Below, piece by piece: positions 1 through 201 of a DNA stretch of 201 nt. This stretch comes from Escherichia coli (lineage in GTDB: Bacteria > Pseudomonadota > Gammaproteobacteria > Enterobacterales > Enterobacteriaceae). Position 1 is the stretch's first letter; each line of letters opens with the position of its first letter. The notes under the pieces are model-generated. The model was given only the letters and a program-made list of their open reading frames with translations, was not told the DNA's origin and ran no database searches. A program made the translations under genes and the position numbers. Location of the stretch: assembly GCF_003334255.1 (NCBI RefSeq), contig NZ_QOWU01000286.1; one strand, given 5' to 3'.

Positions 1-201
1 GTGGCGCAACGGCCAGAACCTGTACCTGGACAATATGGAGGCCACGGGCTTTTACCGGGTGCCCCTGTCCTCTGCACTGCCGGGCGATATCCTGCTGTGC
101 TGCTTCGGCGCATCGGTGGCTAATCATGCCGCCATTTACTGCGGCAACGGTGAGCTGCTTCACCATCTGCCTGAACAACTGAGTAAACGGGAGAGGTATT
201 C
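1..201 (+). CDS. K: Phage tail tip assembly protein K homologue (lambda gene K family, NlpC/P60-type C-terminal region); internal fragment, truncated at both window edges
   Basis: Seen in sequence: the phase with codons at 2-4, 5-7 ... 197-199 is open across the whole window and gives 66 codons with no stop. Phase 1 has TAA at 121-123 and phase 3 has TGA at 180-182. Third-position G+C is about 47 of 66 codons, and 9 of 10 Leu codons are CTG, which is typical enterobacterial/lambdoid coding usage. Established knowledge, recalled from memory and not searched: the translation closely resembles the C-terminal part of phage lambda K, especially the segments WRNGQNLYLDN, PGD-hydrophobic-LLCCFG, NHAAIYCG-x-GELLHH and PEQLSKRERY. 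Exact identity cannot be computed here. Confidence 0.88.
83..166 (+). other. NlpC/P60 papain-like peptidase signature block within the K homologue (His motif and downstream polar residue)
   Basis: Seen in sequence: codons 80-88 encode P-G-D followed by hydrophobic I-L-L (89-97); codons 122-139 encode N-H-A-A-I-Y; codons 143-166 encode G-N-G-E-L-L-H-H. Established knowledge: this matches the canonical NlpC/P60 pattern (GD-hydrophobic ... H-x-G/A-I-Y-x-G-x-G ... H), in which the first His is the catalytic His and the later His is the third polar residue. The catalytic Cys normally lies about 50 residues N-terminal, so it should be upstream of this window. Confidence 0.7.

Follow-up and report, generated by a model that had tools for sequence, protein, structure and literature searches.

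Gene content of the window

The window, i.e. the whole stretch of 201 nt analysed here, contains one uninterrupted reading frame, frame 2 of the plus strand (nt 2-199), which encodes WRNGQNLYLDNMEATGFYRVPLSSALPGDILLCCFGASVANHAAIYCGNGELLHHLPEQLSKRERY. Six-frame translation revealed stop codons in all five other frames, and the search for alternative open reading frames on either strand yielded only one of 40 codons in frame 1, for which there was no support. An Rfam scan of the window gave a single sub-threshold match (E=0.89). The encoded peptide matched PHROG 30, 'minor tail protein' (E=6e-39). The nucleotide identity of the window was 96% with lambdoid phages, Stx-converting ones among them, in which the gene is annotated as 'tail tip assembly protein K', and 98% with Escherichia coli prophage genes annotated as 'C40 family peptidase', which were present in 1889 of 5426 complete genomes. 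On these sequence comparisons frame 2 is the true reading frame of a lambdoid gene K. An identical copy of the window was found neither in viral contigs (scanned with exact 57-mers) nor in the phage or E. coli complete-genome records. The scan of the viral contigs returned 13 loci, the best of them with 4 mismatches over the window; in these closest contigs the 4 differing nucleotides out of 201 all lie within nt 5-43, and nt 98-142 are identical. The features of the window are listed in Table 1.

Table 1. Features of the 201-nt window. Residues are numbered in the window peptide and in full-length protein K (K number = window number + 145).
Feature	Position (nt)	Strand	Remarks
66-codon in-frame piece of lambdoid K	2..199	+	sole open frame; PHROG 30 match; nucleotide identity
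Codon 2, CGC (Arg), K residue 147	5..7	+	nearest contigs and K of PhiR12_2 have TGC (Cys)
G-D-I-L-L-C	83..100	+	conserved Gly-Asp followed by predicted interior beta-strand, K175-178 (nt 89-100)
Cys33 = K C178	98..100	+	final strand residue; other K proteins have M/F/I/L, Spr and 4xcm have F
Cys34 = K C179	101..103	+	opens 8-residue loop toward the catalytic His
His42 = K H187 (CAT)	125..127	+	catalytic His; starts strand 187-193 (nt 125-145)
Cys47 = K C192 (I-Y-C-G)	140..142	+	penultimate residue of the His-bearing strand, before G-N-G turn
His54-His55 = K H199-H200	161..166	+	H199, third residue of the triad; H200, extra His of the K family

The window peptide corresponds to residues 146-211 of a K protein of 247 aa. 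In a full-length relative of this size, 94-95% identical over the window, Pfam recognised Prok-JAB (PF14464) at residues 3-105 (E=7e-16) and NLPC_P60 (PF00877) at 111-224 (E=4.9e-13), which places the window in the C-terminal domain. By itself the peptide gave only weak PDB matches (E=0.04); the profile of the K family matched Spr/MepS at E=1.7e-7. Judged by homology, the window is the strand-loop-strand-turn-strand core of the NlpC/P60 (MEROPS C40, papain-like) domain of K. Neither the catalytic Cys nor the JAB domain falls within the window; both are deduced from relatives with 94-98% identity.

In PhiR12_2, an annotated relative, the gene sits in the canonical H-M-L-K-I-J tail-tip cluster. 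The same order was found in a lambda-derived isolate, in Gifsy-1, in PhiR57_1 and in several prophages, and K is located between L and I in every relative examined, an observation that concerns the loci of the relatives and not the window's own flanks. The gene is the same as the one encoding lambda gpK (PHROG 30; Prok-JAB plus NLPC_P60), whose two-peptidase architecture and H-M-L-K-I-J order recur in the relatives of the window. K of the lambda-derived isolate Lambda_ev110 was 83% identical to the window at the amino acid level and matched its motif GDVLLCCFGSSVPNHAAIYCG exactly, including all three cysteines. Only allelic differences separate the window from lambda, such as L26-P27, A37 and A40 in place of Q-P, S and P. 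The window is thus a piece of the long-known classical K gene of lambda, and its cysteine motif was already present in K of the lambda-derived isolate.

The gpK protein is needed for assembly of the lambda tail tip but has been detected in virions neither by mass spectrometry nor by cryo-EM (PMC10721106; PMC12617516). The same holds for PA0639, the homologue of F-pyocins, which tail-tip formation requires but which the particles lack (bioRxiv 10.64898/2026.02.24.707460). Iyer, Burroughs and Aravind predicted that the two peptidase domains of K process the ubiquitin-like gpI (PMC1779556). We found no biochemical report on any K protein in the literature, and for the cysteines or the activity of gpK the literature held only the gpI-processing prediction and the absence of gpK from virions. 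The JAB/JAMM motif (E...HxH...S..D) is well kept in the relatives: H68, H70 and D81 are invariant, and E19 and S78 are at least 90% conserved.

The annotated K of Gifsy-1 (CDS 2210-2809) comprises 199 aa and starts at an internal Met, although the reading frame runs from 2066 to 2809. The upstream extension (MKEQDILAHARRCAPAESCGF...) covers the whole JAB/JAMM domain, so that short annotations of K omit the metalloprotease half. The classical lambda K is also annotated short, from an internal Met.

Two short repeats in the window were attributed to chance. One is the tandem pentamer TGCTG TGCTG formed by the Leu-Cys-Cys codons (nt 93-102). The other is the 11-mer TGTGCTGCTTC, which recurs with one mismatch at nt 151-161 and looks fortuitous.

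The cysteines and the catalytic residues

The initial annotation had located a Cys-Cys pair at nt 98-103 and a further Cys at nt 140-142. These positions are right: the codons are TGC TGC and TGC, and they flank the His codon at nt 125-127. It had also proposed that the pair takes the place of two hydrophobic residues usual in NlpC/P60 domains. This is true of the first Cys, which replaces a hydrophobic residue; the second occupies a loop position that is normally polar. The discrepancy comes from an alignment that was off by one. In ungapped alignments the usual F-F stands opposite Leu32-Cys33 and not opposite Cys33-Cys34, as seen from GDLVFFS in 4xcm and GDLVLFR in Spr compared with GDILLCC in K. 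Where K has C-C...C, Spr has F-R...I and 4xcm has F-S...L. The site of C179 is polar elsewhere, other K proteins having Q/R/K/A/N there, Spr having R and 4xcm S, and the site of C192 is occupied by L/V/I in other K proteins and by I in Spr.

The catalytic residues can be assigned by homology to the solved NlpC/P60 enzymes, which have the GD-strand, the H-x-x-I-Y strand and a third His at the same spacing as K, and which use a Cys-His-His triad. D174 is at least 90% conserved across the family. H187 aligns with the His of HVGIY in Spr, 4xcm and RipA. His42 and His54 of the window align with H119 and H131 of Spr, both being at least 90% conserved in the family, and the third His stands at H+12, the spacing that the NlpC/P60 family requires. 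The catalytic Cys121 lies upstream of the window; C121, as part of the pair D120-C121, was present in 119 of 120 close homologues and in 130 of 135 aligned distant ones. For H187 the corresponding counts were 119/120 and 127/137, with similar values for H199 and H200, and the Cys-His-His(-His) set as a whole was nearly invariant over 243 homologues. From these alignments the catalytic apparatus is Cys121, His187 and His199 together with the family-specific His200, and the three cysteines of the window are not part of it.

K resembles E. coli MepS/Spr and the other solved NlpC/P60 peptidoglycan endopeptidases (2K1G, 8XUD, 7V6S, 4XCM, RipA) in its papain-like fold (Foldseek target TM 0.55-0.68), at a sequence identity of 18-22%. 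It also differs from them. The solved endopeptidases are cell-wall enzymes, either secreted or periplasmic, and they lack the JAB domain that K possesses. In K, moreover, the third His is directly followed by another conserved His. This residue, H200 (nt 164-166), is kept across the whole K family; in Spr and the other solved enzymes the position is Ala or Ser.

A position where an additional Cys comes and goes is K147, in codon 2 of the window. Among the 120 close homologues it was R in 87 and C in 2.

Distribution of the cysteines in the K family

Two sets of homologues were compared. The close set consisted of 120 sequences. The distant set comprised 148 representatives, derived from the best 150 of 2,755 matches (E<=1e-3, 50%-identity clusters); these cluster representatives are not phylogenetically independent. 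The Cys-Cys pair at 178/179 was found in all 135 lambda-like K proteins, which span 63-97% identity in the NlpC/P60 domain, and Cys192 in 133 of the 135. At the level of the domain the two exceptions were Leu; in the subset of full-length sequences from the clade the exceptions were L or I. Conversely, none of 108 distant K homologues (27-56% identity) possessed the C-C-C trio, the commonest pattern there being M-Q-L. Among 103 full-length distant representatives, position 178 was M in 59, F in 16, I in 9 and L in 8; position 179 was Q in 32, R in 14, K in 11, A in 10 and N in 9; and position 192 was L in 50, V in 20 and I in 19. About 90% of the residues at 178 and 192 in the distant clades are accordingly hydrophobic. 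Cys occurred 2, 5 and 3 times at the three positions, respectively.

K proteins of T1-like, Klebsiella, Ralstonia and Burkholderia phages, gp16 of Escherichia phage LLS and PA0639 of F-pyocins all share the JAB plus NlpC/P60 architecture. The K homologues of these siphophages and tailocins lie between L and I and retain the catalytic CHHH in almost all cases, but they lack the Cys trio (typically M-Q-L, and M-S-V in LLS) and have about half the total number of cysteines. Synteny is preserved in distant K genes too, for example in LLS, which has M-S...V. No indels separate the clades in the segment that carries the cysteines, for which the family profile reads gDvlLmqigskvpnHaaiYlgdgeilHh.

Whether the cysteines are conserved among K homologues therefore has two answers. 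They are not conserved in the wider family, where the trio is absent below 57% identity, and they are conserved in 133 to 135 of 135 members of the lambda-like clade. The alignments identify the trio as a trait of the lambda clade and not as a requirement of the family. Because the trio is missing from K proteins that have the full catalytic set and the same synteny, the conserved role of K must be independent of the cysteines. That the wider family keeps the catalytic residues and lacks the cysteines favours the view that the latter are lineage-specific substitutes.

Cysteines appear sporadically at the same sites in unrelated K lineages, in the combinations I-C-L, I-C-I, M-C-L, M-N-C and F-S-C, so the sites of the trio simply tolerate Cys. 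In one representative with 41-44% identity (P0193) a Cys-Cys pair has arisen independently at 178/179, accompanied by Leu192 and Lys130. Two others (P0132 and P0151) combine His130 with Ile-Cys at 178/179. From their sequences these two could be intermediates toward the C-C-C of lambda; apart from their I-C-L and I-C-I no intermediate between M-Q-L and C-C-C was found among the sampled sequences.

Constraint within the lambda-like clade

Conservation of at least 97% within the lambda-like clade is reached by 24% of the positions in the window and by 31% of those in the whole of K. The residues around the cysteines vary within the clade, as summarised by the pattern GD[IVM][LV][LI]CCF[GA][SAT]S[VT][AV]NHAA[IV][YWI]C[GD]. 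All three Cys codons show synonymous turnover between TGC and TGT. They read TGC TGC TGT in Lambda_ev110 and in the prophages L086 and L087, and TGT TGT TGT in a Salmonella salamae-type prophage, with TGT at the second and third sites in closer relatives. Since so few positions (24-31%) are conserved to this degree, the cysteines are under purifying selection in the lambda-like clade, and the codon changes show this selection at the level of the individual codons. In the alignments of this clade the trio is as constrained as the catalytic residues and hence non-neutral there.

It could be argued that the cysteines are neutral and that their invariance reflects shared ancestry with too little time for divergence. 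In its favour, every sequence with C-C-C belongs to one clade and the representatives are phylogenetically non-independent. However, domain identity within the clade ranges from 63 to 97%, the residues next to the cysteines do vary, only 24% of the positions in the window are conserved to 97% or more, and every Cys codon has alternated between TGC and TGT without loss of the Cys. These sequence data have already largely refuted the neutral explanation, which we regard as very improbable.

Ten of the 247 positions of K are clade-defining, i.e. fixed in the lambda-like clade and rare (<=10%) elsewhere: L66, L84, W93, R104, H130, C178, C179, C192, L197 and T234. Three of the ten are thus the cysteines of the window, whose fixation in 133-135 of 135 sequences goes beyond what chance would give. 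The median Cys content is 10 in lambda-like K as against 5 in other K proteins. Further clade-specific cysteines are found in the JAB half, namely C15, C96 and C105 (L001:3567-4307), each of which is singly replaced by Ser in some members. The idea that the six clade-specific cysteines form one unit was rejected, as the replacements of C15, C96 and C105 by Ser occur one at a time and in different sequences.

Structural model

No solved structure of a K protein exists, the nearest being those of JAMM and NlpC/P60 domains in isolation. The full-length relative was modelled with AlphaFold2 from an alignment of 123 sequences, with very high confidence (pLDDT 96.5, pTM 0.91). According to DSSP the model has a helix at 121-131 with the catalytic Cys at its N-terminus, and strands at 162-165, 175-178 (pLDDT about 98), 187-193, 196-199, 207-210 and 219-225. 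Foldseek matched the NlpC/P60 half to MepS, Acd33800, LytE and Spr (prob 1.0, rmsd 2.5-3.4 A over about 120 columns) and the N-terminal half to JAMM1 and Rpn11-type deubiquitinases. NlpC/P60 domains form an alpha/beta/alpha sandwich with the sheet order 1-6-2-3-4-5 and helices over both faces (PMC4600125). The order of the secondary-structure elements in the model agrees with this published topology, by which strands 175-178 and 187-193 are interior (PMC4600125). As the strands are interior and the residues in other clades about 90% hydrophobic, positions 178 and 192 are likely to be buried in the modelled fold.

The covariation analysis (MI with APC, 230 sequences, Neff about 122) placed the pair 178-192 at rank 139 of 6670, a rank that is confounded by the split between the clades. 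Beyond sequence neighbours no strong coupling of 178, 179 or 192 was seen; 178 covaried most with 179 and 180. Hairpin registers deduced from DSSP alone are ambiguous.

Possible roles of the cysteines

What, then, explains the strict conservation of three cysteines that the rest of the family does without? The explanation that we favour, with a probability of about 0.6, is that they are entrenched, lineage-specific packing residues. K is a cytoplasmic assembly factor that does not enter the virion, composed of an N-terminal JAB/JAMM metalloprotease domain and a C-terminal papain-like domain. The Cys substitutions would have arisen once, in the lineage of lambda-like prophages found in Escherichia, Salmonella, Citrobacter and Edwardsiella. 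They would have left the backbone unchanged, affecting two hydrophobic positions that are probably buried (178 and 192) and one polar position at the start of a loop (179). Later they may have become entrenched, held by purifying selection through local packing that had adapted to them, the neighbouring positions 180 and 197 having changed as well. That packing and entrenchment are the cause of the invariance, and that the thiols take part in no chemistry, is what we infer from several observations. Exceptions at 192 within the clade are Leu or Ile and not Ser or a residue of ligand type, and L197 is clade-defining too. The covariation of 178 with 179 and 180, the sporadic cysteines in unrelated lineages and the doubled Cys content of the clade also speak for packing. 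Against packing, C178 and C179 are kept in 135 of 135 sequences, as strictly as the catalytic residues and over a background of 24-31%. Moreover, all other lineages have a polar and variable residue at 179, and a Cys that was exposed and had no function would be expected to vary.

These same features might point to C178 and/or C179 as a functional thiol specific to lambda-like K. Lying where the strand that would pair with the His-bearing one comes to its end, the two residues could line the substrate groove; alternatively they could provide a second, resolving or relay Cys for Cys121, which would tune specificity or protect the active site. They sit 8-9 residues before His187, in the neck of the same hairpin. 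Their absolute conservation, with synonymous turnover, in a clade reaching down to about 60% identity would be in keeping with such a role, as would the polar and presumably exposed character of position 179 elsewhere and the occurrence of C179 alone in several other lineages (I-C-L, I-C-I, M-C-L). On the other hand, K proteins with M followed by Q, R or K retain the catalytic set and the tail synteny, so no conserved function needs the thiols, and neither a substrate nor an activity is on record for any NlpC/P60 domain of K. We consider a functional thiol rather unlikely. A clade-specific structural Zn or Fe-S site near the active site, formed by the trio with His130, His200 or a Cys of the JAB half, would account for the fact that C178, C179, C192 and H130 make up 4 of the 10 clade-defining positions, just as a newly gained set of ligands would look, and for the gain of six cysteines in the lambda-like clade. 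Metal centres do exist in the assembly module, since the tail-tip protein L carries an Fe-S cluster. Yet a complete set of three to four Cys/His ligands is not kept as a unit and no fourth ligand co-varies. Five members of the clade have E, Q, A or S in place of His130 and still show C-C-C, and His130 was rejected as an obligate fourth ligand for this reason. C192 gives way in a few members to Leu or Ile, hydrophobic residues unlike ligands, and C15, C96 and C105 are each singly exchanged for Ser. Moreover, the distant homologues show neither an indel nor a local rearrangement, 178 and 192 belong to interior strands as hydrophobic core positions, and C178 and C192 would be at opposite ends of the hairpin if 175-178 pairs with 187-190, as the lengths of the DSSP strands suggest. 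Positions 178 and 192 share a weak MI signal, which ranks 139/6670 and is confounded by the split between clades. All this suggests that the residues do not behave like an obligate ligand set, and a metal site seems to us quite improbable. Such probability as the thiol and the metal readings retain comes mainly from the absolute conservation of C179 at a site that is polar in the other sequences.

The suggestion that clustered cysteines near the active-site His indicate metal binding or redox sensitivity, or else are mere lineage-specific hydrophobic substitutes, is thus partly supported, in its second alternative. The ligand set is not preserved as a unit, and the substitutes are not neutral within the clade. 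A redox switch could in principle consist of a vicinal disulfide between Cys33 and Cys34 or of a disulfide with Cys47. Adjacent cysteines can make strained vicinal disulfides in some proteins, and the adjacency of the pair is what speaks for this idea. But tail assembly, in which K takes part, proceeds in the reducing cytoplasm, and mass spectrometry and cryo-EM did not find K in virions, as PA0639 is missing from the F-pyocin particles, and a vicinal disulfide needs a turn, while C178 is modelled in a regular strand. Partly on indirect grounds, then, K offers neither an oxidising compartment or exposure nor a turn at Cys-Cys. For a transient cytoplasmic factor a disulfide or redox switch is unlikely as such, and we give the disulfide hardly any credence. 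The most far-reaching possibility would be that a thiol or metal centre (C178, C179, C192 and possibly H130 or H200) was gained in one step beside the NlpC/P60 active site. If this doubtful proposal were true, the centre would regulate or re-target a predicted assembly peptidase, sensing metal or redox state or cooperating with the Fe-S-bearing L protein.

The cysteines are not general to K proteins and hence cannot explain the role of K in tail-tip assembly. The residues specific to the lambda clade, C178, C179, C192, H130 and L197, should be of use for mutagenesis of gpK. Lambda gpK has about twice as many cysteines as its relatives, which matters for purification and for work on thiol reactivity.

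Observations at related loci

Several loci of relatives showed features of their own. In L097 (IMGVR_UViG_2671180884_000016, approximately 9713-9913) the similarity to the window starts at about nt 70 and the sequence upstream is unrelated, which suggests a recombination junction or a truncation inside this copy of K. The prophage L086, which carries the most divergent K with C-C-C (P0124), has a gene for a ParE toxin, preceded by a small ORF, inserted between M and the tape-measure gene on the opposite strand (1323-1845, minus strand); this insertion is probably a toxin-antitoxin moron. In two Salmonella-type prophages (L088, 1-231; L089, 1-234) a gene for an outer-membrane protein of the Ail/Lom family is located directly upstream of L. 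In lambda itself lom lies downstream of J. The Edwardsiella prophage L087 contains an ORF of 109 aa with a weak Zn-ribbon match between L and K (569-898). Its called I gene (1636-2289) and the end of K share about 100 nt, and a similar overlap is annotated in Gifsy-1; the overlap in L087 may be due to a miscalled start codon or may be real.
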